Source: a virus. Taken from it: a DNA stretch of 64,000 bases. A program made the position numbers and the translations under genes. How positions within the stretch are numbered: the stretch's first letter is position 1; every line of letters begins with the position of its first letter. This document shows, one piece after another, positions 4,990 through 64,000 of the stretch. The stretch lies in IMG/VR virus record IMGVR_UViG_3300036770_003016. One strand, 5' to 3'. The notes below the pieces were generated by a model. It was given only the letters and a program-made list of their open reading frames with translations, was not told where the DNA came from and ran no database searches.

Positions 4990-5149
4990 TTTCAGAAATT
5001 TGATTAAATACTTCTAGACCTTTCTGATTATATGTATGCATTTCTTTATTTACAGTTTCTACTGCCTTATTGACGAAATCTTTTTGAAGATCAATGGCCA
5101 TTGTGGCGTACTTGGTCATATCTTGGATGGTTGGAATATTAGTAAACAT
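4925..5149 (-). CDS. Small amphipathic helical protein (phasin-like composition)
   Basis: AAGGAG RBS; amphipathic helical sequence. Confidence 0.55.
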   Translation of the reverse strand: MFTNIPTIQDMTKYATMAIDLQKDFVNKAVETVNKEMHTYNQKGLEVFNQISENAKQFITAGAFQKVSRDSNKD

Positions 5150-7942: not shown

Positions 7943-8946
7943 TATGCTGCTTTGCCCCATACATCTTCCCATGTTCCAGACAATGCACCTTTGGCGTAGT
8001 CTGTAACACGGTTCTCAAAGAAATTACCGTGAATAGGTGCATTGAGTATTTCTTCTACCCAAGGCAATGGATTCTTTTTGACTTTGAAAATGCCTTTCAT
8101 TCCCATGCTAATTAATCTACGGTCAGCAATATAACGAATGTATTGTTTAACATCTTGTGCGGTCAAGTTTGGCATGTCTCCCATATCAAATGCAAGGTCA
8201 ATAAATTTGTCTTCAAGTTCAACCATTCGTGTTGCAATGGTATATATTTTACCTTTCAGGTCATCATTCCAAATCTCTTTGTTCTCCTCTATATATGTTC
8301 TAAAGAGTTTAATCATAGACTCAGTGTGCATTGTTTCATCAACAATAGACCATGTAACGATTTGACCCATACCCTTCATAAGGCCATGGCGTGGGAAGTT
8401 TAACAACATTATAAACGACGAAAATAATTGCATGCCTTCTGTAAAAGCACTAAAGGCAGCAATATGGGCAGCAGTAGACTCAATAGTGCCGTTTTTTGAA
8501 GATAGGTCCAGAATGTACTCATGTTTCTCTCTCATTTGTGCGTATTCTAGAAATTCGTCATATGTAGAGTCTGGCATGCCAAGTGTTTCGATCAAGTGCG
8601 AATATGCTGCAATATGTAATGCTTCCCTTGCGGCGAAGCCAAGTAACATCATGCGAACTTCTGGTTGTGGAAAATAGGGTAGATAGTTATTAACATAACC
8701 TCCTGCAACATCAACATCGCCTTGTGTGAAGAAACGAAAGATGTTTGTAAGGAATTGTTTTTGTGATGCTGTAAGTTTATTCTTCCAATCTTTTACATCT
8801 TCAAGCATTGGAACTTCTGAGTGTAACCAGTGAGCCTGTTCGTGCTTTAACCATGCCTCGTAAGCCCATGGATAATTAAATGGTTTAAAACTGTTTCTCT
8901 CGTCTGTTAGTCTTGTTTTTGCTTTCTTGATCATTTCTATCTCCAA
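7942..8946 (-). CDS. nrdB: Ribonucleotide reductase class Ia beta subunit
   Basis: FFTQGD, REALHIAAY, EGMQLFSSF, DETMH, NFFE motifs. Confidence 0.95.
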   Translation of the reverse strand: MEIEMIKKAKTRLTDERNSFKPFNYPWAYEAWLKHEQAHWLHSEVPMLEDVKDWKNKLTASQKQFLTNIFRFFTQGDVDVAGGYVNNYLPYFPQPEVRMMLLGFAAREALHIAAYSHLIETLGMPDSTYDEFLEYAQMREKHEYILDLSSKNGTIESTAAHIAAFSAFTEGMQLFSSFIMLLNFPRHGLMKGMGQIVTWSIVDETMHTESMIKLFRTYIEENKEIWNDDLKGKIYTIATRMVELEDKFIDLAFDMGDMPNLTAQDVKQYIRYIADRRLISMGMKGIFKVKKNPLPWVEEILNAPIHGNFFENRVTDYAKGALSGTWEDVWGKAA

Positions 8947-9647
8947 TAATTAGAATAGTCTATACTATCCCAGTATTTTTTGTTGTTGCGGTTCCAAAAA
9001 TTCTTAATCAGATACCAGGCCATGCCAAAATATCCCATCTTTTTAAATCTTCTACTATCTTGTCCAAAGTAATGTTTGAGTAGTTTAAACTTTTTAGGGT
9101 CATACATTTTTGATAAAAAGAAATCTTCACTTGTTTGGTACTTTGCAGGGAATCTACCGAGTTCTTCAAATTTTGATCTTCTTGTCAAAAAGAAAGCACC
9201 TACAGCAAATGGTACCCAAGGTTTCATTATACGATTGATAATATTGAATAGTGAAAAACCAATTTTTGTTCTGATATCATCATCATAACATTTTATATAG
9301 AGGCCAATCAAGTCTAAATTGTTGTTTTCTATTTCATTTACCGAATCTTGTATGACAGTATTACTGAAAAATCTCACATCACTATCTATAAACAAAATAT
9401 ATGGTGTAGTGACCAATTTTGCACCATTATTCTTGGCAATTGAAACTGGCCCACCATCAATTATCTCAACATTCAAATCACCTTTATTTTTTTCTATGAC
9501 ATTTCTGGTGTTATCAGTAGATGCGTCAGCGATGATGATTCTGGTACTTCCTATGTTTTGAAGTCGCAAATCATTTAGTAGATGATGTATGTAATCCTCT
9601 TCATTTTTACAAGGAACAACAATCGTTATTTTTTCTGATAGATTCAT
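8937..9647 (-). CDS. Glycosyltransferase family 2
   Basis: IVVPCKNEE, DASTDNT, FIDSD (DxD), SEDFF, SRRF. Confidence 0.9.
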   Translation of the reverse strand: MNLSEKITIVVPCKNEEDYIHHLLNDLRLQNIGSTRIIIADASTDNTRNVIEKNKGDLNVEIIDGGPVSIAKNNGAKLVTTPYILFIDSDVRFFSNTVIQDSVNEIENNNLDLIGLYIKCYDDDIRTKIGFSLFNIINRIMKPWVPFAVGAFFLTRRSKFEELGRFPAKYQTSEDFFLSKMYDPKKFKLLKHYFGQDSRRFKKMGYFGMAWYLIKNFWNRNNKKYWDSIDYSNYWR

Positions 9648-9868
9648 TTAAGTAACTCGTTTATGTTTTTGACTTGTTCTTCGACATCGTATTTATTTCC
9701 TACAGTAACAGGCACACACATACCACCTTTGTATTGTTTTGCATACTTCTCGCATGGTTCTTTTGTCTGCCAGGCCTCTACAAATACTGGTTTGGCACCA
9801 ACATGTGCAACAATTACGATTGCCCATATGATGTTCATACAATATCTTTCCAGAAAACTAGTTCCCAC
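9644..9868 (-). CDS. Small secreted/membrane hypothetical protein
   Basis: Hydrophobic N-terminal segment, Cys pair. Confidence 0.55.
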   Translation of the reverse strand: MGTSFLERYCMNIIWAIVIVAHVGAKPVFVEAWQTKEPCEKYAKQYKGGMCVPVTVGNKYDVEEQVKNINELLK

Positions 9869-10578
9869 TTACCATCTGTATGCTCAACTAGTGCAGAACA
9901 GCTTTCGACCCAATCGCCATCATTCATATAGACCACACCATCAATATCTTTAATCTCTGCGGTGTGTATATGACCACAAATTACACCATCATAACCTTTT
10001 CTTTTGCAATATGAAGAAAGGTTAGATTCAAATTTAAAAACAAAATCAACTGCTCTTTTTACTCTTGATTTTAAATATTTACTGAGTGACCAATAACCAA
10101 AACCAAGTCTGTGGCGAACAGCATTAAATTTAGTATTCAGTGCAAGTACAAAATCATAAGCCTTATCACCTAGAAATGAGATCCACGGTGCAAGGCGTGT
10201 AATACCGTCGAATAAGTCTCCATGAGTGACCAAATAGTGCTTGCCATCAACGCCAATGTGTTCAAACTGATTGTAGATTTCAACATTTCCAAAACTGAAA
10301 CCGTATGGCAACATTGGTCTGAGAAATTCATCATGGTTTCCCGCAATGTAGATAACTCTTGTGCCCCTCTTTGCATAACCTAATATCCTTCTGACTACAT
10401 TTGTATGACTTTGTTTCCATCGCCATTTGTTTTGTTGAATTTTCCAACCATCAATTATATCACCTATAAGATATAAAGTGTCACAAGTATTGTTCTTAAG
10501 AAAATTATTTAATAAATCTGCTTTACAATCTTTAGTTCCCAAATGCACATCACTAATGAATATGCTTTTGTAGTGCAT
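9835..10578 (-). CDS. Metallophosphoesterase, PlcP-like phospholipase C (LpxH superfamily)
   Basis: SDVHLG, GDIIDGW, WKQSHTNVV, GNHD, HGDLFD, CGHIH, NDGDWVESCSALVE. Confidence 0.85.
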   Translation of the reverse strand: MHYKSIFISDVHLGTKDCKADLLNNFLKNNTCDTLYLIGDIIDGWKIQQNKWRWKQSHTNVVRRILGYAKRGTRVIYIAGNHDEFLRPMLPYGFSFGNVEIYNQFEHIGVDGKHYLVTHGDLFDGITRLAPWISFLGDKAYDFVLALNTKFNAVRHRLGFGYWSLSKYLKSRVKRAVDFVFKFESNLSSYCKRKGYDGVICGHIHTAEIKDIDGVVYMNDGDWVESCSALVEHTDGKWELVFWKDIV

Positions 10579-15651: not shown

Positions 15652-16078
15652 GATTGGCCTCTGTTGGTGTTTTAGCGTTTTTTTCTTGTTCATTGAGTGG
15701 GGCACCTGACGCCAATTCCATACACCTAATTGCATTTTGGGTTCCACGATTCACAAGTCTCTCTACTACATTTGGTTTCTCTGATGCCAGAGCACCAAAA
15801 TCTCTTTTACTAAATTTTGTTGTAAGTGCTTCTTTATCTTTACTTAATTGTTCTTTTTGTTGATTTAATTCATCATTTATTTTTTTGATGGCTTCAATGT
15901 CAACTCTCATTTTTTCCATCAGTTCATGCTGATCTTTTATTCCTTGCTCAAGTTTAGCATTATTTGCCTGTGATACAGCAAGATCAGCTTTTAAATTTGT
16001 TACATGAAAAAACCCACCAGCTAATATTAGTATGATGATGAGGTATATAATTGGTTTTACAAATGCAAGTGGGTTCAT
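15605..16078 (-). CDS. Inner-membrane spanin (i-spanin)
   Basis: N-terminal TM helix, long coiled coil, C-terminal cysteines. Confidence 0.75.
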   Translation of the reverse strand: MNPLAFVKPIIYLIIILILAGGFFHVTNLKADLAVSQANNAKLEQGIKDQHELMEKMRVDIEAIKKINDELNQQKEQLSKDKEALTTKFSKRDFGALASEKPNVVERLVNRGTQNAIRCMELASGAPLNEQEKNAKTPTEANRECPSLINPAYSSPN

Positions 16079-17640
16079 TTTGGTTTTCTTGTGAACATGT
16101 TAAATGGAATAACTTTTTTCTTGTTCTTCTTATTGATACCTGGTTCACCTTGATCGCCAATTCCAAGACCTGCAATCTGACCACCACCAACATTGTTGAC
16201 TGATACTCCACCAACCATTCCACCAAATTCTTCAGGCATTGATGCTAGTTTTCTTGCATCTACATTAGGGAATGATCTGGCAACTTGTGCTGCATAGTAT
16301 AGTTTATCATGTCTTTTATCATTCTTTCTCTTTAAGAGGTCTGATAATGTTTTCTTGGCTTTATCATATTCATCAGAATGAATGTGTGGACTCAAAGCTT
16401 TCATAATTCCAAAATCTTCATCTAACTCAACTTCTTCATTCAAACCCTCTTTGCCAGGTGGCTGAATATTGTGTCTTGGTGAAGAGTTACCAAATGCAGA
16501 TGATGTCTTGACTTGTTCAGAGAATAAATGCACTCTTTTGTGACCTGTGACACTACCTTTTGTATCTTTTTGTGGAACATGTGCATGATAATGGATATAT
16601 TTGTCACCTGTTGGGGCTCTAGACACTTCTAATCTTGTCTCTGGGTCTCTAAGAAGATTAGATACTTTAGATTCGTGTGGAACTTCTACTTTTGATGTGA
16701 TACCTGTCTTTGCAGTACCATTTGTTGTTACTTTAGAATATGGCATTGGTGGTGTCTCAGAAGGTTCATCGTCTTTACCACCAGCATTTAAATAGTTATT
16801 CAGTAAAAAGTCTTTTACTTTTTGATGACCCTCAGGGCCAGAATTGATCATGCCCTGTAGATGATCAACTATATGATTTCTTATTCTGGCGTGACTATCA
16901 CTCTTTATCTTTTCATATTGTTGATGAAAGGCTTCATGTTCAGGTTTAGGCGATATAGGTTTACTCTTGTCACGATTGATTCGATTGCCACTTAGTTTTC
17001 TTAGTGCTTCTTTCTTCTCATTATTGGTCATTGAAGAAAAACCAGGCATAATTTTGTTTACATGTTTGTGTAGGTCATCATGTGCTTGTTGCCATAGTTT
17101 AGTTGTTGAAGAACCTAGCGCAGCATCCATGTGTTTGGGTGATGGATTTTTGAAACCAATATCACCTTTTGCTTTTTGTGTAGACTTGAGTGAGATGCCA
17201 TGGTAAATCATCTTACCAGTTTTCTTGTGCCTTAACCCAATTGTAACATCAGAAGGATTTAAAAGACCACTATCTTTGTGTTTACCTTTTGTTGCCTTTT
17301 CAATAGCACCATCTACATTTGTATGATGGACTTCTACCAGTTCATGATCTGGATATAATTCTCCCAAATGACTTTTAATTCTTTCTGCCTGTGCGAAACC
17401 ATGATTCTTACGATTCTCTAGATCGTCTTTACTCAACCTTGGAGATGCAGTATCATAGACAGATTTAGCTCTAGTTAATGTTTCTTGATTTTCTGGTCGT
17501 TTGAAATGTTTTGGGTGCAGATGTTTATGTATCAAAGCAGCTGCAGCAATAGTTTCAGTTACAGCACCAACTGATTGTTGTGTACCTTGTCCTGAAACTT
17601 TTTCTTCTTTTTCAATTAAAAATTCTGTGAAACGATTCAT
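16075..17640 (-). CDS. Probable head-internal protein with PD-(D/E)xK-like nuclease domain
   Basis: N-terminus MNRFTEFLIE; PSD...GISLK motif; internal EEVELDE. Confidence 0.6.
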   Translation of the reverse strand: MNRFTEFLIEKEEKVSGQGTQQSVGAVTETIAAAALIHKHLHPKHFKRPENQETLTRAKSVYDTASPRLSKDDLENRKNHGFAQAERIKSHLGELYPDHELVEVHHTNVDGAIEKATKGKHKDSGLLNPSDVTIGLRHKKTGKMIYHGISLKSTQKAKGDIGFKNPSPKHMDAALGSSTTKLWQQAHDDLHKHVNKIMPGFSSMTNNEKKEALRKLSGNRINRDKSKPISPKPEHEAFHQQYEKIKSDSHARIRNHIVDHLQGMINSGPEGHQKVKDFLLNNYLNAGGKDDEPSETPPMPYSKVTTNGTAKTGITSKVEVPHESKVSNLLRDPETRLEVSRAPTGDKYIHYHAHVPQKDTKGSVTGHKRVHLFSEQVKTSSAFGNSSPRHNIQPPGKEGLNEEVELDEDFGIMKALSPHIHSDEYDKAKKTLSDLLKRKNDKRHDKLYYAAQVARSFPNVDARKLASMPEEFGGMVGGVSVNNVGGGQIAGLGIGDQGEPGINKKNKKKVIPFNMFTRKPK

Positions 17641-18029
17641 TTAATTTTCCTTAGAGCGTTTGCTATGTTCATGTCAACTTCTATGCTTGAAGACATTATA
17701 TCACATCCTTTTATACCTTTTACTACATTTGGCATTATATTGAGAAACAACAAATATGTTTTTAGAGCAGAATAATCTTCTTTAGACATTTTATAGAACA
17801 ACATTCGTACAGCAGGTTCGGGACCGAAGACATTATATAAAACGACTAGATGATTTAGTACTAATTGTTCTTTAAGATCGTTGTTTTTGCGATACTTGTG
17901 AAACAATCTTTTAATATAGTTAAATCTTTTCATATCTTCTTTAAATTCACTCATGATAGTGTTAGGTTTATCATAACACTTCATTGCAAACATTAAGAAG
18001 TTTTCATTTGTTAAATCATCAAAAGCCAT
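17637..18029 (-). CDS. Conserved T4-like hypothetical protein
   Basis: ENF..FAMK.YD.P, EF.ED.KRF.YIKRL, LNHL..LYNVFG. Confidence 0.8.
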   Translation of the reverse strand: MAFDDLTNENFLMFAMKCYDKPNTIMSEFKEDMKRFNYIKRLFHKYRKNNDLKEQLVLNHLVVLYNVFGPEPAVRMLFYKMSKEDYSALKTYLLFLNIMPNVVKGIKGCDIMSSSIEVDMNIANALRKIK

Positions 18030-18466
18030 TAATTTTCTTCTTCGTCTTCCTCCTCATCCGACAGTAGTTCTTCCATACGAGCATCGTCTCCTACTTCAGC
18101 ATAAAACTCATAGTGACCTTCATCGGTGAGATAATATAAAACATATAAATTTGTCGTAAGATTTTCTTGCCCAAACTGATTTATATCAAGTACAAATTCA
18201 TCTCCTTCTGGATCAGCATCGTAAAGTGCTGGCAGATCAAAACCGTATCTGTGCAGCACTTTACGAATTGCCTGTATGCCACCTTCTGGAGAAAGAAATG
18301 GTTGATACAACTCGTTCATAAAGCGATAATTCATTTCCATTTGAACTTTTGAATTGTCAATATCGGATCTGGCCTCGCCAGTAGGCTCATGAGCCTCTTC
18401 TGCTTGACCAGCCTCGATATTTTTCAAATCAAGTTCTTGAAGATATTGTTTGAATCTCATTATCAA
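18029..18466 (-). CDS. Probable head-internal acidic protein
   Basis: N-terminus (MI)MRFKQYLQE. Confidence 0.65.
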   Translation of the reverse strand: MIMRFKQYLQELDLKNIEAGQAEEAHEPTGEARSDIDNSKVQMEMNYRFMNELYQPFLSPEGGIQAIRKVLHRYGFDLPALYDADPEGDEFVLDINQFGQENLTTNLYVLYYLTDEGHYEFYAEVGDDARMEELLSDEEEDEEEN

Positions 18467-19020
18467 TTGACAGTTAATGTTGCAGGATCAGATGTCACTG
18501 TGTCAGCACCTGTTGCAGAAACAGCAACTCTAAATTCATTTCCATTAGCATACCAAGAGTCAGTGCTCTCAACAGTTAATGTCTGAGAAGTAGCACCATT
18601 AATCTCTGTCCATGTTACACCAGAGTCATTGGTATAAGACCACTGATAAGAAACTGTTGCGCCACGGGTAGCTGTAGCTGAAGAAGTAAATACTGCTTCT
18701 GCTGGACTTGTAACTGTTGTATTTGCTGGTGGTGTTCCAATAGTAATAACTGGATCTGGATCGATAGTATCGTTATCAGTAACGATAGAACCCATTGCAA
18801 CTAGGCATTGATATGTTACACGACCTTCACGACCGCCAGTTCCCTCAGTACGAAGGTTCCAACCTGCGAGTGCGCTGTTAGTTACAGCTTCTTCTGGATC
18901 TAAAGCAAATGTTCCAACTGGTGTTTGTCCATAAGCCTCAACACCAGTCGCACCATTTGTAGTATCTACTGTGTGCTTTGGTGCAGAAGATGCTTCATCT
19001 GTATTTGACCATAAAGCCAT
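18463..19020 (-). CDS. Ig-like domain virion protein
   Basis: C-terminal Ig fold pattern: ITIGTPP, VSYQW, INGATSQTLTV, FRVAVS, TSDPATLTV. Confidence 0.8.
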   Translation of the reverse strand: MALWSNTDEASSAPKHTVDTTNGATGVEAYGQTPVGTFALDPEEAVTNSALAGWNLRTEGTGGREGRVTYQCLVAMGSIVTDNDTIDPDPVITIGTPPANTTVTSPAEAVFTSSATATRGATVSYQWSYTNDSGVTWTEINGATSQTLTVESTDSWYANGNEFRVAVSATGADTVTSDPATLTVN

Positions 19021-19044
19021 TTTTTTCTCCTTGAAATTTATGTT

Positions 19045-20058
19045 TTATTTATCTTCTTTTACTATCTCACTTGAAAGCACAGGTTTTTCCTGATATGTTT
19101 CTGAATCATTCTTTTTCTTTTTGACAATCTCTTTGATGATCTCTGATCTGCGAGATTCTTCTAAAGATTCTTTAACTGGTTTTGTATACTTCTTCATCGC
19201 CTGTCTTGCAAGGTGGCGTGCTGTAGAATAACCAGCACCTTGTTTACCAGCAATTGCTTGTTTCTTTGGTTTGTCTGGTGTAAATGGTGGTTTGAGTCTC
19301 TCTGTCTCTTGTCTTTCAATCTCTTGATTCTTATAGTATCCTTCTTCAAGATCAACTTCTTCTTTCTTCATGTCTTCAATTTCTTTTTTCTTTTGATCAC
19401 GAAGTTTTAGATAGTAGTCAGGATCAGGAAGACCTCTTCTCTTTCTTTCATCATCATGTGCTTTTTGTAGAGATTTTGATGCTGGAACTGAATCATATTC
19501 TTCTTCAGTAATTTCAACTGATTCACTATAATGTTGAGCATTTCCAGTACTTAGATGTTTCTTAAGTGCGTTGTGTATTTTACTTAGACCTGCTCTGATA
19601 TGATTCTCAGCCATTTCACCAGCAGCATAACCATGATGTCTTAGAATTTCACCATGCATATGATCTATTTTGTTTCCAATGAATTGACCAACACCACCTG
19701 CGGCAGTACCAAGAAGACTTTCATCAATCTCTTCTTCTTTAACCATACCAGTACGGCGTTTCTCACCCTCAATGAAAGAATGGAGACTTTCAAACTCACT
19801 AAAAGATTTAGCAACTTTTACTTGATACCACTCTTCTACTTCACCACCCTTTTCAATGTATTCCAAAATTTCTTTACATGCATATGAAATAAAATGTAGT
19901 TGAGATTGTGTCATCTCAACTTTTTCTGTAGTATCAGTTTCTTCCTTCATTTTCTGCATTGGTTCTTTATTTGGTTTCTGCTTATAAGTCATAGCAGCCA
20001 TAGAAGGCATATCTGGTTCTACATTAGTTTCTCGTACTAACTGTCTAAACTTTTTCAT
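19045..20058 (-). CDS. Probable head-internal modular protein
   Basis: MKKFRQLVRE; EEEIDE, VEITE, EEVDLEE spacers. Confidence 0.65.
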   Translation of the reverse strand: MKKFRQLVRETNVEPDMPSMAAMTYKQKPNKEPMQKMKEETDTTEKVEMTQSQLHFISYACKEILEYIEKGGEVEEWYQVKVAKSFSEFESLHSFIEGEKRRTGMVKEEEIDESLLGTAAGGVGQFIGNKIDHMHGEILRHHGYAAGEMAENHIRAGLSKIHNALKKHLSTGNAQHYSESVEITEEEYDSVPASKSLQKAHDDERKRRGLPDPDYYLKLRDQKKKEIEDMKKEEVDLEEGYYKNQEIERQETERLKPPFTPDKPKKQAIAGKQGAGYSTARHLARQAMKKYTKPVKESLEESRRSEIIKEIVKKKKNDSETYQEKPVLSSEIVKEDK

Positions 20059-21314
20059 GCCTTCTCCTTCGCAATTTTTGTAGCAGTGGCGTACATTACA
20101 CTTTTTGCACGATCACCATATCTTGCTTTGAACCCTTGTACATTCTTTTTCATTGACTTAACAATCTCTTCTTTCTTAGCAGTTTCTGGTTCAGAAAGTG
20201 TTTTCTCTTCTAGTTCAACTTCTTCTTGTTTTACTGCTTGCACAGAAGCCTTAGCAACTTCAGGTTGTTTCTTTTTTCCTTCCATACTTTTCTTTTGATC
20301 TTCTACTTCTTTAGTAAATTCTTCATTATCTGGTTCTTCTTTCATCATTGCAGCAATGAATTTTAAACCATGTGAATCATATGCTTCTAGAATATCTGTA
20401 AAACCAACTTGAACATCATCTTTTAATTCTCTGCCAGAAACTCTTCTAGAACGAACATAGTTCTGTCTGGCACCATATTTACCTCTTTTTGGTTTCTCAT
20501 CATCTTTTTTATAAGATGATTCACCATGCTCTTCTTCTTTACCTTGATAACCATAGTCTTGTGTCTTTCTTCTTTGACCTGGTTTAGAATCTTTTGGAAA
20601 CTTTTTCTCATATTCTGGTGTTCCTGGCCATAGTGCTTCGTCAAGTTCAACTTCTTCTTTTATTTTCTTTTCATCAGAACTCTTACCAAAAGTGCCATGT
20701 ACTAGTTTATCTAGTTTCTTATGAAATTTGTTTTCTTGAGTCTTAGAAGCTTCTTGAATATCTTCTTTTACTTGTTGACCATGCTTCATAGAGTTTGCTT
20801 TTTCTTTTTCTTTTTGAGCACGAAGAAGTTTAAAGTCATGTGCATCAACTTTTCCATTTTTGTTTGCATCAATCTTATGTTGATTGCCTTTTAATTCCTC
20901 ATCAATTTCTTCTTCCTCTTTAACAGGAACACAATTAGGTACTTTGCGACCATTTTTCATCTTCATGCCAACAGCAGTATACCCTTTCCAACATGCATCT
21001 TTGAGACTACCAGTTGGTTCTTTTACATCTTCTTTATGCATTGCCTTTTCATGTTTAGCAACTTCACCTTTTTTACCATGCATTTTCTTTTCATGTTTGT
21101 CTACGGCTTCTTCTGCCTCGTCTTCACATGATTCTTCTTTTTCTTCTTTTCTCAATACACCACGACCAATCAACACATCTTTGTGTGTGATCTTATCTTT
21201 TGGGTGACCCATTGCAGCAAGTTCTTTTTCCTTTTCTGTTTTTGGAGTAGAACCTTCTAAAATTCTTGCTGCTTCTTCAGCAACTTTTCTAGTGATATCA
21301 TTATTGAATTGCAT
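20055..21314 (-). CDS. Probable head-internal modular protein (K/E rich)
   Basis: EEEIDE, EEVELDE, EEVELEE spacers; CWKGY..VPNCVP module; EF-hand-like DANKNGKVDAHD. Confidence 0.65.
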   Translation of the reverse strand: MQFNNDITRKVAEEAARILEGSTPKTEKEKELAAMGHPKDKITHKDVLIGRGVLRKEEKEESCEDEAEEAVDKHEKKMHGKKGEVAKHEKAMHKEDVKEPTGSLKDACWKGYTAVGMKMKNGRKVPNCVPVKEEEEIDEELKGNQHKIDANKNGKVDAHDFKLLRAQKEKEKANSMKHGQQVKEDIQEASKTQENKFHKKLDKLVHGTFGKSSDEKKIKEEVELDEALWPGTPEYEKKFPKDSKPGQRRKTQDYGYQGKEEEHGESSYKKDDEKPKRGKYGARQNYVRSRRVSGRELKDDVQVGFTDILEAYDSHGLKFIAAMMKEEPDNEEFTKEVEDQKKSMEGKKKQPEVAKASVQAVKQEEVELEEKTLSEPETAKKEEIVKSMKKNVQGFKARYGDRAKSVMYATATKIAKEKA

Positions 21315-21331
21315 TTTAGTTCTCCTGAGTT

Positions 21332-22600
21332 TTAGTTATATTCTTCCCATGTCAATGACGCCACGGCATCATCGTTGTTTGTTGTTGCAATAGCTGATAC
21401 AACAAAAGTTTCCATAGTTCCATCTATTGTTGTTCTTAACTGATAACTTGAATTGTATTTTTTGAAGTCTACATTGGTTTGATTGACACCTGCACCACCC
21501 ATAAACATACCTTGTAACAAATTATCCCCACCAGACAAAGCAGTTCCAGTGATATTATATTCTACATGACTTTCTGGACCAGCACTTACCCATGTGCCGC
21601 CAGTAACAGTTGCATTTTGCAACATTCTGTAATTGAATGGTGTTGATTGTAACCCATATAAGTCTGCTGCGACTGGAACAACAACGCCGCCTGGTCTGTC
21701 TACTTTCAAACGAATTGCAATCATTGGTCTTGAAGTTACATTTGATAACTCAATACCTGTAAGTGGTGTTGATACTGCATGTGTAACTACTCTTGGACTA
21801 TGACCACCTTCTGATATGACCGTATTACAAATGTGTTCTAATGTGGTATTACTTGCAGTTGTTCCTGTATTTGTAATTTCATATCGTAAAGGTAAAGTTG
21901 CAGTTGTCATGTAAACAGAAGTAATCTTGTTTGCATGATGAAATTTGTGTGCAGTTAAAATGCGACCATCAACAACAAAACCAATGCGAATTGTACCAGC
22001 ACCTAACCATTCAAAATCAGACCAAAAGATTTGTGTCTTTGAAAAATCAAGAGTTACTTTACTGTAACCTGTTCCATCAAATTTATCTTCAGACCATTGC
22101 GATTGTGGAATTCTTTCTTCTTCAACAGAACCAGTTCTGAAACTTCTTTTTACAATGTATGCAGTTGTGCCATCATGTTCCAAATAAACACCATTTCTTG
22201 TATCAAAATAACCAATTCTTTGACGAACATTGGCCTTTGGTTGCATTGTACCAGTACTGAGTGTAAGTAAACTTTTTCCTGGTTGATAATGAAAGTATCT
22301 TTTTGTTTGACGAATAACTGAATCATTGTTCGCAGTACCAACTGTCATCAATACAGATGAAGTATTTGGTGAATGAACAACTGTTGTGTTTGCAGTATTT
22401 GATATAGACCAATTTCTTGTATCATCAGTATATCTCAATGTACTATCAAAAATTGTATGTGGTTCGGAAACACGAATACGACCAAAAGCATCACGAATTG
22501 TACCACCAGGTGATAGCTGATCGTCAAGCATGAACACCTCAAAACGAGTTGTTACTTGACCTGAATCAATAATCTTAAGATCGTTACGATATTGTGCCAC
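21332..22600 (-). CDS. Beta-rich virion structural protein (lectin-like)
   Basis: Thr/Val/Gly-rich; DAFGRIRVS, YQPGKS, EWLGAG motifs; GTG start. Confidence 0.65.
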   Translation of the reverse strand: MAQYRNDLKIIDSGQVTTRFEVFMLDDQLSPGGTIRDAFGRIRVSEPHTIFDSTLRYTDDTRNWSISNTANTTVVHSPNTSSVLMTVGTANNDSVIRQTKRYFHYQPGKSLLTLSTGTMQPKANVRQRIGYFDTRNGVYLEHDGTTAYIVKRSFRTGSVEEERIPQSQWSEDKFDGTGYSKVTLDFSKTQIFWSDFEWLGAGTIRIGFVVDGRILTAHKFHHANKITSVYMTTATLPLRYEITNTGTTASNTTLEHICNTVISEGGHSPRVVTHAVSTPLTGIELSNVTSRPMIAIRLKVDRPGGVVVPVAADLYGLQSTPFNYRMLQNATVTGGTWVSAGPESHVEYNITGTALSGGDNLLQGMFMGGAGVNQTNVDFKKYNSSYQLRTTIDGTMETFVVSAIATTNNDDAVASLTWEEYN

Positions 22601-23518
22601 TTAGCAATTCCACTTTCTTAATGCTTTGTTAATACGAGAATCTGGATCATTTGCTGTCTTAGCAGATGTCAATCGTTTTTTCATGCCACCCATTCTGGCA
22701 CAAAATGATTTGCGTCTCTTTGCAGACTTAGAATCTGGGTCTAGTTTAGATGGTTTTGTAGTCACAGCAGTCTGTAACTTTGAACCTGGATTCTCACGGC
22801 GATATGATTCAACACCTTTTTGATTCAGACCACCTTCAGGATTTTTACCTTCTTTTCTCTGCCATGCTGCAACCTCATCAAGTTCAACTTCTTCTTTTAC
22901 TTTTTTATATTGTTTCTGCAATACTTTTAATGCATCTTTTGTTACTTTATCAGTTTTTTCTGGTTTTGCTTTTTTACCTACTGGCAATCCTTCTGCACCA
23001 CGACTGGAAGATGGTTGAGATTTATCCATTTCATCAAGTTCAACTTCTTCACTATATGAACGATTACTTTTTGGATCATAACCACCTAAAGGATATGCTG
23101 AAGGTGATGGGGGACGAGGAGCAATTGGTTTCTTTGCAGCTGCTTCATGTCTCTTTTTTACTTCTTCTGCATCTTTTGCTCTTGACTCTGGTGTTGAAAC
23201 TTTTGCATTAGGAAATCTCTCTTTTGCAAATTTAGCAACATAAGAATCTTCTTCTTTGATATGGCCATATTTTTTCTTATACCAATTAGGCATACCATTT
23301 TTTTGTCTGAAATATCTAACTGTTGCAGAATCATTTGCTTGATCACGATACTTGTTTTCTGCTTGAGTATTGTGTCCTTTCATTGCTTCTGCTGCTTTAT
23401 GAGCATCTTTAGCAATATAAACAAGTTCTGCATCTGTTTTGCGATGGTATTCGTGTCCTTCAAGTGGGTGTCTTTGAGAAGGGCGACCTTCTGTTATGTA
23501 AGATTTAAATGACTTCAT
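22601..23518 (-). CDS. Probable head-internal modular protein with conserved C-terminal basic domain (DUF6321-like)
   Basis: MKSFKSYITE; two EEVELDE; WQRKEGKNPEGGLN...RRKSFCARM..DSRINKALRKWNC. Confidence 0.7.
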   Translation of the reverse strand: MKSFKSYITEGRPSQRHPLEGHEYHRKTDAELVYIAKDAHKAAEAMKGHNTQAENKYRDQANDSATVRYFRQKNGMPNWYKKKYGHIKEEDSYVAKFAKERFPNAKVSTPESRAKDAEEVKKRHEAAAKKPIAPRPPSPSAYPLGGYDPKSNRSYSEEVELDEMDKSQPSSSRGAEGLPVGKKAKPEKTDKVTKDALKVLQKQYKKVKEEVELDEVAAWQRKEGKNPEGGLNQKGVESYRRENPGSKLQTAVTTKPSKLDPDSKSAKRRKSFCARMGGMKKRLTSAKTANDPDSRINKALRKWNC

Positions 23519-25848
23519 CCTATTGGCCTCTTTGATCTAAATGTTTTTAGGTTCATACCTTTTTTCTTTAAACCATCTTCAACTTGTGCAGATATAGATG
23601 CAGTTGTTTCATCACCAGTAAGTTCTTCTAATGGTTTTTTAATTTGTTTTACTTTTAATGTACCACGACTCATGTTCTCACCTGATGCAGCCATTGAAAG
23701 ACCAGGTTCTATCCCCTTGTCGATCTCGCTGAGGGTTTCTTCTTGAAGTTTCTCTTTTTTTGCCCTGATTTCTGCGAGGGTAATTTTTGTGGTTCTGGTT
23801 TCTTGGCTGGTTTCTTTTGTGTTACTGAGTCTGTAATCTGATCGTTCACTGAGGAGGGCAGAGACTTCTTGTTGATCTTTGGTTCTACCCGAATATTCGG
23901 TGGAATCTCTGAGTACTTGTTGACTTTCTCTGTTGCTGCCCTCACTGGACCATCCAATGGATGACTCTGTGGTTTCTCTTCCGTCATTCCAAAAAATTTC
24001 TGTAATAGTTTCATTAACATCGTTATTCTCCTTTAATTGCACGACATAACCGTTTTTGTATCTCAAGACCAATCCATTGTGTGTATGTGCTTCTTTTGCT
24101 GCAGCAGCTCTTAACATAAACACACGAACACGACCAGTCTTATCTTTCATTAACTTAGGTTCTTTTTCTTCACCTATCTTAAAATCATGTTCATCAATTG
24201 CATTACCAAGCAATAATAGATTCAATGCAGATGAGTCTGATAGTTCATATGATTCTTTGAACATCTTATCAAAAGCACTAAGTCTTGGTTTTGATTTTTT
24301 ATTCTCAACCTTTGGTTTAGGTTTAGATTTTGGTGTACCAGATGAACTAGAAATAGGTATCTTTTGTTGTTTTTGTTCTTGTGGTTTTACTTCGACAAGT
24401 TTATCATGTACAGAACGATGTGTCACTCTTCCATTTTTGCCGTATCTACCAAACCCGTAATACTTAAGTCCCAATTCTTTTGCCTGTTCTGCTGCTCTAG
24501 AACCTTCATGTGGAACAATCTCTTTACTTGTGTCTACTTTATATGTGTCTTTTTTATCTAGTTCTGCTGCAACCCATTCTTTTGCAGCTTTATTCTTAGG
24601 TGGTGCCGTAACAAATTTTTGTACAGTTTTAAATAACTCTGTAATTTCTTTTTCTTTTTGTTGCACTACTTCTGGTGGTGCATTTCTTAAATCTTCTGAG
24701 TTATCAAACTCTGTATAGTTTTGTCCAAACAATTTTGCATATTCAGGTCTTGCAGCCTGTACAGCATCCCATTTCTGTTTACGAATGTCTTCTGGTACTG
24801 TGCGACCACCTCTTTGTCCTCTTTCTACATTCCTTGCAGCAGAGACTTCATCATCAGTATTGACCATGATTCCACTTGTTTCATAACCATGTTTCTCAAG
24901 ACTACTTTTAATTCTTTTAATCTTTTCTACATCATCACCTGTACCATTAATAATGAGTCCATTCTTTCCAACAAGTGCCAAGTATTGTTTTAATTCAGTA
25001 ACATTTTTTGCACGACTACGAACAGCATTTCTAACTTCTGTTTCGGATTTAGGCATTGTCTTATCAAGACCTTCTTTGTCCATAAGAAACTCAAATGCTT
25101 TATCAGAATTAATTTCAATCAGACCTTGATTATCGAGTGTTCTAGATAACACATAATCTTTTCCAGAACCTGGGCCACCAAAAAGAAATACTGCTTTGAA
25201 TATAGATTTATCGTGAACACCTTCTACCAAGAATTCTTCAAACTCTTCGTTAATGTCTTCTCTAATCATCATTCCTTTGCGAACATCATTGTACATTGCC
25301 TTGACTGTATCAAGTGGCATCGTAGATGGAGCACCTTTTTTAAATTTTGCAAATTTTCCTTGTGCAGCAAACTCACGCATTTTAGATGCAGAAATACCAG
25401 CAACTCCATCTGCATCAGGGTCTCTTTCTCCAGCAGAATGAACTTCTATCTTTTTGAATTTGAAAAGATCACCATTGTAAGTATTAAGTAATCTTTTGAA
25501 TTCTGGCACACGATCAGAACCACCTACCATGTGTAGATGTGTATAACCTGCCTTATACAGGTCTGCGGCTTGTGATAGGAAATTAGGGGAAGTTGCGTTT
25601 GAAGATTTGAATGTGACGCCAGGAAAAGACATCTTGGCGTATTTGACTTTTTGTGCTGCGGAGAGTGGATTTTTCTTTTTATCTTGTGTGTGGGAAAGAA
25701 TTATGATTGCTTTTCCACCAACTTCTTGTGCTACAGCCTTGACTTTTTTAACCAATTCTTGGTGGCCGTTGGTAATAGGATTCATGCGGCCAAATGCCAT
25801 AACCACATGTTTTTCTTCTTTTTCAGTAAGGTATTCTTTAAATCTCAT
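23515..25848 (-). CDS. Cytidyltransferase-like (HIGH-class) nucleotidyltransferase fused to a P-loop kinase (PNK/zeta-toxin-like)
   Basis: FGRMNPITNGH, GSDR, SASKMR; GGPGSGK, INSD, RNVER..RTVPE; N-terminus MRFKEYLTE. Confidence 0.8.
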   Translation of the reverse strand: MRFKEYLTEKEEKHVVMAFGRMNPITNGHQELVKKVKAVAQEVGGKAIIILSHTQDKKKNPLSAAQKVKYAKMSFPGVTFKSSNATSPNFLSQAADLYKAGYTHLHMVGGSDRVPEFKRLLNTYNGDLFKFKKIEVHSAGERDPDADGVAGISASKMREFAAQGKFAKFKKGAPSTMPLDTVKAMYNDVRKGMMIREDINEEFEEFLVEGVHDKSIFKAVFLFGGPGSGKDYVLSRTLDNQGLIEINSDKAFEFLMDKEGLDKTMPKSETEVRNAVRSRAKNVTELKQYLALVGKNGLIINGTGDDVEKIKRIKSSLEKHGYETSGIMVNTDDEVSAARNVERGQRGGRTVPEDIRKQKWDAVQAARPEYAKLFGQNYTEFDNSEDLRNAPPEVVQQKEKEITELFKTVQKFVTAPPKNKAAKEWVAAELDKKDTYKVDTSKEIVPHEGSRAAEQAKELGLKYYGFGRYGKNGRVTHRSVHDKLVEVKPQEQKQQKIPISSSSGTPKSKPKPKVENKKSKPRLSAFDKMFKESYELSDSSALNLLLLGNAIDEHDFKIGEEKEPKLMKDKTGRVRVFMLRAAAAKEAHTHNGLVLRYKNGYVVQLKENNDVNETITEIFWNDGRETTESSIGWSSEGSNRESQQVLRDSTEYSGRTKDQQEVSALLSERSDYRLSNTKETSQETRTTKITLAEIRAKKEKLQEETLSEIDKGIEPGLSMAASGENMSRGTLKVKQIKKPLEELTGDETTASISAQVEDGLKKKGMNLKTFRSKRPIG
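23709..24020 (-). CDS. Nested +1-frame basic protein inside 23515..25848
   Basis: AAGGAG 7 nt before ATG; natural-looking sequence MLMKLLQKFFG...KKPAKKP. Confidence 0.6.
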   Translation of the reverse strand: MLMKLLQKFFGMTEEKPQSHPLDGPVRAATEKVNKYSEIPPNIRVEPKINKKSLPSSVNDQITDSVTQKKPAKKPEPQKLPSQKSGQKKRNFKKKPSARSTRG

Positions 25849-25878: not shown

Positions 25879-25886
25879 TATTTATA
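25879..25886 (-). promoter_or_regulatory. T4-type late promoter
   Basis: TATAAATA about 30 nt upstream of 25848. Confidence 0.8.
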
Positions 25887-27665: not shown

Positions 27666-27938
27666 TTAACCTCTTGTCAATTTCAAAATCTTTTGCATTT
27701 GTTGTTCTAATACAGGACCACGATTGGGCCAATGTATATATGGTTGAGATGCAGACTTGTAAAGATTAGTTAGGAATGGCATGACAATCTTTTCAACTTG
27801 TGCTAATCTTTGTTTATATTCTTCCACAGTTTCATCTTTTTGAGCAATTACAGCTTCATACTCTGCCTCATCTACAGCTGTAAAACCAAAATCTTGATCA
27901 CCATATTCAGACAGTATTTTATTTAGATCATATGCCAT
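27666..27938 (-). CDS. Conserved hypothetical protein
   Basis: DFGFTAVDE, PFL.NL, YIHWPNR. Confidence 0.75.
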   Translation of the reverse strand: MAYDLNKILSEYGDQDFGFTAVDEAEYEAVIAQKDETVEEYKQRLAQVEKIVMPFLTNLYKSASQPYIHWPNRGPVLEQQMQKILKLTRG

Positions 27939-29170
27939 TACTTACTCCAATTCTTTGCAGCATTAAAATTATTTTTACTGAATTCTAATCTATCTATAAG
28001 TTTTAAAGCACCACCACTCAATCTATCAACAGCAACAAATCCTTCTGGGCCTGTAACTTTGAAACCATCATCAGTTTTCACAAATGTATCTACAGAAGAT
28101 TTTATAGTTTCCAATTTCTTAACTATAATATTTTTTGCTTCAACGATAGAGTTCATTAGATCAAATATAAGTTTTAGTTGTGCTGCATTTGTTCTATAGA
28201 ACCTCATCAGATCATTTTTTTCTGTTAATCGTTTTTGTTTCGTATCTTCTTTTTTAGATGCTAGAATTTCTTTGTTCAATCTTTCTTCAACCCATTTTTG
28301 CAATTCAGTCACATGTCTGGCTGTATTTGTGATTGCTTTACCTTCACGAACTTTAGTATTATTGAAAGTTTTAATTTGCATAAGAATTGTTGGAGATGCA
28401 GCGATACGATTTAGAACTAATGGTGTTATTGATCTAAATGTTCTACCTGCATCAGAAAGAATAGAAGTTATTTCTTTAGTTTCATCTTTAGTAAAAGTTG
28501 CTGTACCAGAAGCATCAACAAAAGACGCATCACGAAACCAAACATCTTTTGTTGTTTTAAAATGACCAATATCTATGTTAAAAGTTGCCTTCAAAGTATC
28601 CATAGATTTACCAAAGTATGCCGTATGAAACACAATACCAATTTGTGCATCCAACATTTTACGAGCCATTATCGTATCAGAAGGAATAGCATATACGATA
28701 GTGTTTGGTTGAAATGTTATATATGAAGTTCCATCTATTTGTCTTCTATCTATATCACCTTTAGTGAACAATAGATCACCCTGATAGATTCCATTGAAAC
28801 CAAGTTTAGGTAAAAATGCAAGTGCAGTTTTAAGTTTAGAATTTAAACCTGGATTAGGATGATTGTTATCAATGTCTTCATCTGTATAGTTTAGTTTGCC
28901 TTCTTTATTGAATACTGATTTAGTACCAACGAAGAACTTTCCGTTATCTGGATTAATACCACAGATAACAGCAGGTGCACCATCCCATTTTGTTGTGACA
29001 TTTATTTTACTTTGAGAATGACCAGCCAACATGTCACGAAGAGATTGAAGAAAGTTTATCGATTCTCTAGCACCCATGATGCCACGATTAAGAACATTAT
29101 CTTCCAAATGTTCAAGATGAAGGTTGGCGCCTTCTTTAGAAGACTCTTTTAAATAATCTTTGAATTTCAT
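27938..29170 (-). CDS. Conserved T4-like protein (DUF6267-like) with KxDG ligase-like motif
   Basis: HLEHLED, TTKWDGAPA, QGDLLF, PEGFVA, LKLIDRLEFS; N-terminus MKFKDYLKE. Confidence 0.75.
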   Translation of the reverse strand: MKFKDYLKESSKEGANLHLEHLEDNVLNRGIMGARESINFLQSLRDMLAGHSQSKINVTTKWDGAPAVICGINPDNGKFFVGTKSVFNKEGKLNYTDEDIDNNHPNPGLNSKLKTALAFLPKLGFNGIYQGDLLFTKGDIDRRQIDGTSYITFQPNTIVYAIPSDTIMARKMLDAQIGIVFHTAYFGKSMDTLKATFNIDIGHFKTTKDVWFRDASFVDASGTATFTKDETKEITSILSDAGRTFRSITPLVLNRIAASPTILMQIKTFNNTKVREGKAITNTARHVTELQKWVEERLNKEILASKKEDTKQKRLTEKNDLMRFYRTNAAQLKLIFDLMNSIVEAKNIIVKKLETIKSSVDTFVKTDDGFKVTGPEGFVAVDRLSGGALKLIDRLEFSKNNFNAAKNWSK

Positions 29171-29196: not shown

Positions 29197-29204
29197 TATT
29201 TATG
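29197..29204 (-). promoter_or_regulatory. Late-promoter variant
   Basis: CATAAATA about 27 nt upstream of 29170. Confidence 0.6.
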
Positions 29205-61601: not shown

Positions 61602-62957
61602 TTACATTAAGTTTGCAATCTTGAAGCCACGGTAGTATACGTTGCTCATAGCACCAAGAGCGCCAAGACCTTGTGTAGTACCTTCTGCAAATGGGTTGGC
61701 AACTAGACCGTAACGAGTCTTGAAACCAATCTTTGGTTGGAAAGTACCTGTATCAACTGCACGAACCATTTGCAATGGTACGTATGGGCAGTAGAACATA
61801 CCAGCGTCATAGGCATTAGAACCTTTGTAACCAACAACTGCGAACTCAGATGTTGCACCAACTGGGAAATATGGGTCGATATAAACTTTGATACGACCAA
61901 ACAATGTACCAGCGTATGTGTTACCTGTATCGTCAACTGTTAGATTAACTTGACCTTGTAGAGCAGACTGATAATCAAGAATACCAGCCATTGCAAATGC
62001 GGAAGCAACATCAGAAGAACAAATCATGATGTTACCTTTCCCTCTACGAGTAAGTTTTGCAATTGTGTTTGCTTCTCTTTCGATTTGGAAAGCAAGACCT
62101 TTAACTTTTTCAACCATCCAGCGACCATTTGAATCTGTGTCAAGGTTGAAAGTACCGGCAGTTGTTGTACCTACTTGAGCACCAACTTTGGCAATCTTGT
62201 AGATTGTACGAATAACTTCACGGTTGATCTCTGCAAGAATTTCAGAAGAAAGAATATTTGCGAGTTCTGTTTCAGCGTCAAGACCATGAACTGCCTTAAG
62301 GTCTTGTGCGAGTTCCATAGAGTACTCAGCCTTAAGAGCACGGGTCTTAGCAGTAACAGTGACTTTCTCAATTGAGAAGGCCATTTCATTAAAGTCTGCG
62401 GAACCACCAGCAACATCTCCAAGAGATTCAGCTGTAGCAGTTGCCATACCAGCACCAGCAGCAACAGATGCAGATGTAAATGTGTTACCAGAACCTAATG
62501 CAGTATTAGCAGCAAGTGCGAGATCAGTCTGTGATGTACCTGCACCAGAGAATACTGTATTTGCTTCATTGTAGAAGGCTTCAGTATTAGTATTTGCCTG
62601 ACCGTCGTAACGAGTTCTCATTGCAAAAATAAGTCCTGTTGGACCTGTCATTGGCTGAACGCCGCAAACATCATAAGCAATAAGATTTGGTAAAGAACGG
62701 CGAACTAAAGAAATAAGAATTGGGTCGAAACCTGCAACTGGGCCGTATGCATCAGCAGAACCACCAAAACCGCCTGTGCCTACTTGTGATGTTGGACCTG
62801 CTTCTGTAAGAATATTAGAAGCTTTCTTCATTTCTACAGCTTGGTTCTCAAGAATAACAGCTGTAACTGCCTTACGATAAGGATCAGAAATTTTTGGAAG
62901 GTCTGGGTGCTCTAATACACCTTCCCATTTCTTTTGAAGTTGTTCTGAAAGATACAT
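61602..62957 (-). CDS. 23: Major capsid protein (gp23)
   Basis: LENQ, GVQPMTGPTGLIFAMR, LAQDLKAVHGLDAE, FYCPYVPL, GFKTRYG. Confidence 0.99.
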   Translation of the reverse strand: MYLSEQLQKKWEGVLEHPDLPKISDPYRKAVTAVILENQAVEMKKASNILTEAGPTSQVGTGGFGGSADAYGPVAGFDPILISLVRRSLPNLIAYDVCGVQPMTGPTGLIFAMRTRYDGQANTNTEAFYNEANTVFSGAGTSQTDLALAANTALGSGNTFTSASVAAGAGMATATAESLGDVAGGSADFNEMAFSIEKVTVTAKTRALKAEYSMELAQDLKAVHGLDAETELANILSSEILAEINREVIRTIYKIAKVGAQVGTTTAGTFNLDTDSNGRWMVEKVKGLAFQIEREANTIAKLTRRGKGNIMICSSDVASAFAMAGILDYQSALQGQVNLTVDDTGNTYAGTLFGRIKVYIDPYFPVGATSEFAVVGYKGSNAYDAGMFYCPYVPLQMVRAVDTGTFQPKIGFKTRYGLVANPFAEGTTQGLGALGAMSNVYYRGFKIANLM

Positions 62958-62971
62958 AAAATACTCCTTAA

Positions 62972-63991
62972 TTAAATTTTAGTTTTAGAAATTGCTTTTG
63001 ATACTGCGGCAACAAAAGGATCATTGATATTTTTGTTTGCATCTTCAGTATCTTCTACTTGTTCATGAAGTTGTTCTGCATCTGCCTTTTTAACGCCAGA
63101 TGGGAAATAGTTTTCACGGATTGTTTCAAGTTTTTCTTTGTACTCTTCCTCTGTGGAAAACTCTACACTCTCTGCGAGTGATTTGATTTTTTCAACTTGA
63201 GTTGCCGTTAAACCATCACATACTTCATAAGTAATTTGGGATTTGACAGACTCGACAAGAGCCTTTTTATACTCAACTGCACGCTCAATCTCTTCATTAA
63301 GTTTACCTTCAAGTTCTTCAACTTTACCAGCAAGTTCATCAACGAGATCGACTTTTTCAGCAGGAACATCAATATAATGTTCTGCAAATAGATTACGAAG
63401 ACCAGCAATAAATTCCTCAGAGAGTTCTGCACGAAGACCTGATTCAATTGCCAATTCGTTTTCTTTTAACCACTGCTCAACAACATAGTTGAGATAGTCA
63501 TCAACCTTTTCGGTTAATTCTGTTTTGATTGTTTCTACTGCTTCTTCAAGCATAGAAGCATAATCAGCTTCTAATTGTTCTTGAATCTGAAGAACTCTGT
63601 CATTAACACGAGCTTCAAAAATTGTAGAAACTTTTGATCTGAAATCTTCAGAGATTGTAGAATCATCACCAAAGATTGCATCTACATCTTCTTTAATAGA
63701 GTTTTGAAACTCTTCTTCAGAATCAATTAATTCTTGATCTTCATCAGTCTCTTCTTCTTCTTTTCTCAAGTTAGTAGAAGGCATTGCTGAAGATGCATCA
63801 GAAGGTTTTGTTGTTGGTGCAGTTGCACTCTTAGCTGCCTTTGTTGTATGAATCTTGTTAGAATCATCATCAGGTTTGCTATTTTGTGGAGTTGGACCGC
63901 CAAGGTCTACAACACCACCTTCTAATTTTTGTGGAGGCATTGCTGTAGCTTTACTCTTGCTTCCTGCAAGAATTTCTGCTGCTGCTTCCAT
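62972..63991 (-). CDS. 22: Prohead core scaffold protein (gp22); true start may lie beyond the window
   Basis: TIFEA, KVDDYLNYVVEQW, LFAEHYIDVP, RENYF; upstream of 23. Confidence 0.93.
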   Translation of the reverse strand: MEAAAEILAGSKSKATAMPPQKLEGGVVDLGGPTPQNSKPDDDSNKIHTTKAAKSATAPTTKPSDASSAMPSTNLRKEEEETDEDQELIDSEEEFQNSIKEDVDAIFGDDSTISEDFRSKVSTIFEARVNDRVLQIQEQLEADYASMLEEAVETIKTELTEKVDDYLNYVVEQWLKENELAIESGLRAELSEEFIAGLRNLFAEHYIDVPAEKVDLVDELAGKVEELEGKLNEEIERAVEYKKALVESVKSQITYEVCDGLTATQVEKIKSLAESVEFSTEEEYKEKLETIRENYFPSGVKKADAEQLHEQVEDTEDANKNINDPFVAAVSKAISKTKI

Positions 63992-64000
63992 TAGTTGATT

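Follow-up and report, generated by a model that had tools for sequence, protein, structure and literature searches.

The internal proteins of phage T4 (IPI, IPII, IPIII, and Alt) enter the head by means of a short N-terminal leader, the capsid-targeting sequence. It was reported previously that ten N-terminal residues are enough for loading, positions 4 and 7 acting in targeting and positions 8 and 10 in processing, and that gp21 cuts after L/I-x-E, T4 leaders of such form being cut (PMC9026906). The variable internal-protein loci of T-even phages are a precedent for diversity (PMC9026906, PMC3012670). In the giant phages phiKZ and SPN3US, ejection and inner-body proteins are cut after the Glu of S/A-x-E by a gp21 homologue, some of them at several sites (PMC5694885). 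Here we describe a locus in a 64,000-nucleotide (nt) stretch of IMG/VR virus record IMGVR_UViG_3300036770_003016 (the window; 35% GC), a block of late genes from a marine T4-like myovirus, in which the peptide linker EEV[ED]L[DE]E, encoded by a near-identical 21-nt repeat, recurs between the modules of four open reading frames (ORFs), g521, g337, g419, and g305. The locus is best read as T4 internal-protein biology in polyprotein form. Judged from the sequence, it is rather likely that these are head-cargo polyproteins, loaded by their leaders, with predicted gp21-type cuts at leaders and linkers and with cassette turnover at the linkers.

The likeness to T4 starts with the leaders. Six ORFs at 16-29 kb begin M-[KR]-x-F-x-x-[YF]-[LI]-x-E, the T4-type leader pattern. 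The T4 record gives MKTYQEFIAE for the leaders of ipII and ipIII and MKTFKEF..ITE for that of ipI, and the leaders of the block match them in length (about ten residues) and in carrying an aromatic residue at each of positions 4 and 7, followed by L/I at position 8 and Glu at position 10. Hydrophobic or aromatic residues were found at positions 4 and 7, for example in g305, with g419 lying outside the pattern. The leaders end in ITE, LTE, LIE, LQE, or LKE, that is with L/I at -3 (P3) and Glu at -1 (P1), the processing determinant; the end of the g337 leader, VRE, has V at P3 and is a weaker one. The four linker-bearing chains and the two variant linkers are as follows.

22601..23518, minus strand: g305, a chain of 305 amino acids (aa) with the leader MKSFKSYITE at 23489-23518.
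20055..21314, minus strand: g419, a 419-aa chain with a conserved 20-aa N-terminal leader ending in ILE (21255-21314).
20898-20918, minus strand: EEEEIDE variant linker, in g419.
19045..20058, minus strand: g337, a 337-aa chain with the leader MKKFRQLVRE, an EEEIDE linker, and an EEVDLEE linker at 19342-19362.
19720-19737, minus strand: EEEIDE variant linker, in g337.
16075..17640, minus strand: g521, with the leader MNRFTEFLIE, a 398-aa body, and an EEVELDE linker at 16417-16437.

A preliminary description of this DNA had reported a near-identical 21-nt repeat at six coordinates, with EEEIDE-type variants, and had proposed that the repeats separate short modules. All of this was borne out. 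The consensus ttcatcaagttcaacttcttc occurs at 16417, 19342, 20205, 20637, 22874, and 23030 with 3, 2, 3, 1, 1, and 0 mismatches, respectively, and shuffled sequence gave 0.00 matches. Read on the minus strand, the six copies encode EEVELDE, EEVDLEE, EEVELEE, EEVELDE, EEVELDE, and EEVELDE in order of ascending coordinate. At the protein level the motif is restricted in the window to the four chains, all on the minus strand, and all eight strong linkers end in [LI]-x-E. The modules named in that description all occur: CWKGY..NCVP, an EF-hand-like DANKNGKVDAHD, RHPLEGHEYH, WQRKEGK..WNC (which is Pfam DUF6321), and the GGGQIAGLG..GEPG tail. Two linkers (EEVELDE at 23030-23050 and 22874-22894) divide g305, which has its DUF6321 module at the C-terminus (22604-22873); the predicted products are residues 11-163, 164-215, and 216-305. 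Besides its variant linker, g419 carries EEVELDE at 20637-20657 and EEVELEE at 20205-20225. In g521 the linker is followed by a basic 113-aa C-terminal module that contains the GGGQIAGLG..GEPG tail. The six leader-bearing ORFs were not mentioned in the preliminary entry on the repeat.

The window encodes a gp61-type primase, helicases, an SbcCD-like nuclease, gp23, and gp22. Cultured matches to gp23 reach no more than 64% identity, and the lineage is therefore uncultured. The two head genes are these.

61602..62957, minus strand: gp23, major head protein, with a propeptide ending in NILTE|A.
62972..64000, minus strand: gp22, scaffold, running past the window end.

The NILTE|A of gp23 aligns with the T4 maturation site SFLTE|A after residue 65, and gp22 is enriched in [LI]xE (14 sites vs. 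7.2 expected, P=0.005). Peptidase_S77 (PF03420) is encoded by more distant relatives with related genes (G002, G005, and G006).

In the mechanism that we propose, the chains would be made late and would enter the prohead core via a T4-type leader (g305, g337, g521, and g777, a gene described below) or, for g419, via another conserved leader. A gp21-type protease would cut after the Glu of each leader and acidic linker (EEV-E-[L/I]-[D/E]-E|) during head maturation, and about 16 polypeptides of 49-570 aa would be released from seven genes. The predicted fragments of the four chains are 49-153 aa long; several are strongly basic (DUF6321, net +15) and some acidic. Many of the released polypeptides are basic mini-modules, which would probably stay with the DNA. 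Near-identical linker DNA would flank every cassette in frame, so that breaks and joins between two linkers could add, remove, or move modules and every join would recreate a cleavable joint. The sequences themselves show the motif and its confinement to the block, the leaders, the re-use of modules behind leaders, and indel junctions within linkers. That these proteins are packaged and cut, and what then becomes of the pieces and what they do, is inferred; injection and any anti-defence role are speculative.

Cassette gain and loss were examined against the nearest relative, a 32-kb fragment without head genes (L029, which is record G001). DNA identity to the window is 93-98% over most of the shared region and ∼80-87% across g305-g419, and three cassette indels, in g419, g337, and g305, separate the two. 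In g419 the window lacks 64 aa, made up of a cassette and a linker, and the junction falls within the 12-nt repeat GAAGAAGTTGAA; the window linker at 20205-20225 is therefore an exact hybrid junction. A 41-aa indel in g337 has the 9-nt repeat AAAGAAGAA on its flanks. The indel in g305, of 67 aa with a CW..C module, is linker-like at its left edge alone.

Syntenic loci of other phages were fetched with one structural gene of the block as the anchor.

21332..22600, minus strand: virion structural protein (phrog_1645, 422 aa), which sits between the chains.

The g419 family has at least 3984 members. Their N- and C-terminal modules are common and their middles variable, bounded by EEVELDE or EEVEQ[LI]DE. 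Among 343 unique large insertions collected family-wide, 57% had at least one edge at a strict linker (19% expected) and 9% had both (1% expected). This large-insertion test replaced one that used the ends of local alignments (high-scoring segment pairs) as boundaries, in which the enrichment was weak (16.8% vs. 11.9%). Junctions were read from 80 IMG/VR loci, as in-frame indels that separate copies whose flanks are at least 85% identical. The 18 unique indels of close copies showed junction microhomology of 2-21 nt. It reached at least 8 nt in 9 of the 18 (null P=0.008 per event) and encoded the linker there, once over the full 21 nt (AGAAGAAGTTGAACTTGATGA). Both edges lay in linkers in ∼11 of the 15 indels lying within one open frame; some other indels had KEE repeats or no repeat. 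Clustering of the inter-linker segments collapsed to one cluster (K/E-rich over-linking) and gave no cassette-type count, and a scan of metagenome contigs gave one short locus.

These junctions lend real support to the earlier suggestion that the DNA repeat is a recombination joint, although selection for products that are in frame and cleavable would give the same pattern and the repeat is short. We advance only tentatively the idea of a dual-purpose linker, the peptide being a head-protease cut site and the DNA a preferred in-frame crossover, which would maintain a population-wide pool of mini-protein cassettes for capsid-cargo genes, always packageable and cleavable. If true, cassettes would be exchanged within the genes of proteins that the virion delivers, and nature would offer here a peptide motif whose coding sequence serves at the same time as a joint for exchange. 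There is a substantial chance that the repeat has no recombination role and is only a footprint left by peptide conservation in AT-rich DNA, with linker boundaries produced by selection and breakpoints anywhere. The six window copies share no DNA homology beyond the 21 nt and differ at synonymous sites (GAG, GAC, TTA, and CTA), and we concluded that their DNA identity comes mostly from the peptide and codon bias. Val is GTT in 6/6 copies (0.45 expected) and Leu is CTT in 4/6 (0.28 expected). A footprint would also agree with the indels at KEE repeats or at no repeat, and 21 nt is very short for homologous recombination. It is harder to reconcile with the exact hybrid junction at 20205-20225 and with the 8-21 nt of microhomology in half of the 18 indels, located as it is in linker-coding DNA. 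The part of the GAA and GTT excess in 97 linkers that persists after a Glu-Glu context control points the same way; uncontrolled, GAA-GAA-GTT stands at 99%, 98%, and 72% vs. a background of 81%, 81%, and 49%. The linkers are not phylogenetically independent, and their codon uniformity is suggestive only. Exchange at conserved motifs is, in addition, documented in T-even tail-fibre adhesins (gp38 glycine-rich motifs and gp37; Tetart et al., 1996, 1998, via PMC3157838). Short conserved motifs lie there between hypervariable segments and exchange occurs in or near the motifs, as here. Unlike the linkers, these motifs form the structural core of one folded domain and are not protease sites, and it is receptor specificity, not cargo, that is swapped.

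What the linkers conserve was read from short relatives of the DUF6321 module, which number at least ∼8000 proteins; 118 were examined. A strict leader stood at the start of 106 of them, and the usual build was a leader, one mini-cassette (the CW..C hairpin in 99), a linker, and DUF6321. Directly before DUF6321, P3 was L/I in 117/118 and P1 was Glu in 117/118, with variation at P5 (E/D/V), P4 (E/Q), and P2 (D/E/N). Because only P3 and P1 are near-invariant, the constraint is the protease determinant in an acidic context and not the heptapeptide itself. The specificity determinant of the protease is conserved in these linkers and in the eight of the window, as is expected of polyproteins that a protease processes.

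Modules were also found to begin at the same residue whether a linker or a leader precedes them. The MDKSQPS cassette follows ELDE in g305 and the leader MKTFKQHILDE in P0122 (ILDE|MDKSQPS), and it occurs in g419-family loci too. DUF6321 comes directly behind the leader in L004 and P0141, and the g419 cassette KFH..LDKLVH is also found behind leaders in DUF6321 genes. The description of the ORFs as strings of beads was accurate in this respect. When g305 was compared with 50,697 phage records by tblastn, 514 matches were obtained; all listed myophage matches, and most of those listed overall, started at residue 217-219, 2-4 residues past the second linker. A further case is the gene upstream of g305.

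23515..25848, minus strand: g777, with the leader MRFKEYLTE followed by a cytidylyltransferase-like domain.

Behind an internal junction of g777, EEFEEFLVE (25222-25248, residues 201-209), come a P-loop kinase (Zeta_toxin/AAA_33) and then a long tail. BLASTP aligned residues 202-429 with the stand-alone kinase of L021 from residue 3 of the latter, by which EEFEEFLVE|G corresponds to the L021 kinase leader MIKFKRFFEE|G. In L021 the nucleotidyltransferase domain of g777 is followed by EEVELEE. The whole protein resembles two leader-bearing parts, a cytidylyltransferase and a P-loop kinase, in one chain, as if genes had been fused or split at a capsid-targeting sequence.

It is rather unlikely that the acidic linkers escape cutting and act as spacers or docking motifs, either as a hinge (flexible or helical) or as a patch that binds the scaffold, and that the chains stay full length. 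Such a role would explain why seven residues are conserved where a protease needs two and why modules are not depleted of stray [LI]xE, and the N4 virion RNA polymerase is a large protein packaged unprocessed (PMC5512222). It would not explain why P3 and P1 alone are invariant across diverse linkers while the acidic positions vary, or why the same module begins right after that Glu behind a linker or a cleavable N-terminal leader. T4 leaders of the same form are, moreover, cut (PMC9026906). The structure models fit beads on a flexible string. AlphaFold gave g305 a predicted local distance difference test (pLDDT) score of 63 and a predicted template-modelling (pTM) score of 0.27; the values for g419 were 54 and 0.17. 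Islands of moderate confidence were the CW..C hairpin, the C-terminal helical module, and parts of DUF6321, and all five strong linkers of g305 and g419 fell in segments with pLDDT <50.

Published virion proteomics bears on whether such proteins end up in heads. In purified particles of cyanophage S-SM1, 41 proteins were identified by Sullivan et al. (2010; PMC3037559). T4-GC190 (cytidylyltransferase) was represented by 25 peptides and T4-GC119 ("structural protein") by 13, and gp21 was present too (PMC3037559, Table S8). The T4-GC119 gene ranges from 276 to 2985 nt in length across 16 phages (PMC3037559). In our comparison, the T4-GC119 members of P-SSM4 and S-E7 are bead-strings with DUF6321 and CW..C modules, and the P-SSM4 T4-GC190 protein begins MKKFSAFLKE. 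The proteomics supports head loading for two orthologous families, not cleavage.

We regard as unlikely a second alternative to head cargo, in which the chains are disposable core or scaffold filler, cut like gp22, gp67, and gp68, with fragments that exit and a role in assembly or size control instead of delivery. T4 core proteins are indeed cut to short fragments that exit the capsid (PMC5694885, PMC9026906). In the T4 record, gp67 and gp68 are acidic and basic multi-site proteins, and several of the fragments predicted here are acidic; as in the chains, many L/I-x-E cuts yield small fragments and acidic and basic stretches are mixed. The T4 core proteins are, however, conserved and adjacent to gene 21, show no cassette shuffling, and mostly lose their fragments from the head, whereas the chains form a separate, hypervariable block with widely conserved modules and enzymes. 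They lie ∼40 kb away from gp22/gp23, and neither homology nor a position in the gene 20-23 cluster places them among the T4 core proteins; no PHROG scaffold or core family matched them. Modules such as DUF6321 keep 50-90% identity in hundreds of genomes of myo- and podophages and also occur stand-alone, T4-GC119 peptides are found in mature virions, and filler would have no need of a nucleotidyltransferase or a kinase. The podophages with DUF6321 include Pelagibacter phages Skadi-5 and Ran and Prochlorococcus P-SCSP1 phages (records H61-H65). A gp21-type protease would not be expected in podophages, and the presence of DUF6321 there means that its role is not tied to the T4-type head. Cytoplasmic polyproteins cut by another protease (such as the 745-aa phrog_459 peptidase at 48528-50765, or a host enzyme) and with no link to the head are very improbable: a large peptidase gene in the window and the lack of a classical leader in g419 speak for them, but the block has T4-type leaders, virion structural genes, and late-promoter-like motifs, the orthologous groups are virion proteins, and the invariant linker positions are those of gp21 specificity.

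Several observations weigh against head-cargo polyproteins with turnover at the linkers. The gp21 gene is outside the window; by T4 gene order it should lie just past base 64000. The leader of g419 differs from the classical T4-type pattern, and confidence in the structure models is low (pTM 0.17-0.27). In cyanophage orthologues L/I is often missing from P3 of the joints (P-SSM4_160, S-E7, and G002). Stray [LI]xE inside the modules is not avoided (observed/expected 1.02; other proteins 1.07), a result that neither supports nor refutes cleavage. Two of the three L029 indels (g337 and g305) are away from canonical linkers, and 43% of the large insertions had neither edge at a strict linker; boundaries and linkers do not coincide in every case. 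In a Glu-Glu context control the codon figures for GAA-GAA-GTT were 93%, 88%, and 56%, GAA being already at 88-93% in any such context, and the GAA and GTT excess that persists is modest. Linker-bounded indels would be expected from selection for in-frame functional products whatever the mechanism. A 98%-complete relative, G002, has degenerate linkers and almost no canonical leaders, and the genome-wide census was uninformative.

Head-cargo polyproteins would differ in several ways from the systems described so far. T4 internal proteins are cut after L/I-x-E and consist, like the chains, of basic, variable cargo that is unrelated in sequence behind a conserved leader. They have a single module per leader, whereas the chains hold several, with internal linkers of 7-8 residues and cassettes that move between genes. 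They have no sequence homology to the chains, and IPI has anti-restriction activity, whereas the modules here are without known function. In phiKZ and SPN3US the extra sites lie in long discarded propeptides, and no repeated linker between exchangeable modules is described in PMC5694885. For polyvalent proteins (Iyer et al., 2017; PMC5512222), packaging and delivery along with the DNA are likewise predicted, and they too are multi-module and extensively mosaic in their domains. Unlike the chains, they carry large enzymatic conflict domains, are processed, where processing is present, by their own metallopeptidase domain, and have neither a capsid-targeting leader nor a repeated prohead-protease linker. 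No signature domain of polyvalent proteins was found in the chains by Pfam or PADLOC, nor were 2-15 conflict domains. The protein closest to that architecture is g777, with its nucleotidyltransferase and Zeta-toxin-like kinase. The word cyanophage has 0 occurrences in PMC5512222.

T4-like phages belong to the most abundant marine viruses, and public metagenomes contain thousands of members of this one gene family. If the proposed reading is true, the T4 internal-protein paradigm (leader-directed loading and gp21 trimming) would extend to ocean phages, and the enzymes and length-variable "hypothetical structural proteins" in purified cyanophage particles would be accounted for. A large, fast-shuffling pool of small proteins would then enter the host with the DNA, as the first phage products that the cell meets. 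A simple sequence rule, leader plus [LI]xE linker, could be used for predicting virion cargo. In the literature that we searched, cyanophage and capsid-targeting sequence came together only in a T4 review that cites cyanophages in passing, and no relevant paper mentioned these motifs or DUF6321.

The search for functions gave little. On the four chains, Pfam called DUF6321 only, PADLOC gave no matches, and no defence-related lead came from either; ESM Atlas gave no functional lead for DUF6321, and none of these resources nor PHROGs assigned a function to the modules. Other features of the block are the following.

18029..18466, minus strand: g145, very acidic (net -27), with the leader MRFKQYLQE counted from the second Met.
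27938..29170, minus strand: g410, 410 aa, phrog_455, with the leader MKFKDYLKE.
25879..25886, minus strand: TATAAATA, a T4 late-promoter-like motif (consensus match only), 31 nt upstream of g777.
29197-29203: ATAAATA, a late-promoter-like motif (consensus match only), 27 nt upstream of g410.

Neighbouring genes in the stretch g777 to g521 abut or overlap in an operon-like manner. Counted over the whole window, TATAAATA is at chance level (5 found vs. 5.7 expected), which limits its use to its position upstream of g777. The leader-bearing form of g145 has 143 aa and an EEEDEEEN tail. A very acidic, capsid-targeted protein of this sort could mimic DNA as Ocr and ArdA do; evidence from homology for such mimicry was not found.

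A few further observations were made on the chains and their surroundings. The C-terminus of g521 (window 16075-16230) has a tail, ..NNVGGGQIAGLGIGDQGEPGINKKNKKKVIPFNMFTRKPK, that matches phrog_3286 (a 64-aa profile, E=8e-4) and may be a separate recurrent C-terminal signal of phage proteins. Residues 149-160 of g419 (20835-20870) form a lone EF-hand-like loop, DANKNGKVDAHD, which is conserved in relatives as IDKNKNNKVDAEDF; acidic loops like it occur in P-SSM4_156 and L021, and it gets no Pfam call. The 745-aa protein at 48528-50765 is a full-length match to phrog_459 'peptidase' (E=5e-177). A segment of ∼1.64 kb at 8939-10578 with two ORFs (8937-9647 and 9835-10578) is absent from L029 and seems to be variably present between near-identical phages. 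L029 in turn has an extra 262-aa ORF (its positions 4390-5148) between an epimerase-like gene and g777, that is between window positions 25935 and 25937; the protein begins MQIGIIGNGFVGN.. and looks NAD-binding. In the whole window ATAAATA occurs 14 times vs. 24.9 expected, 13 of the 14 on the coding (minus) strand, a deficit that suggests purging of spurious late-promoter-like sites.

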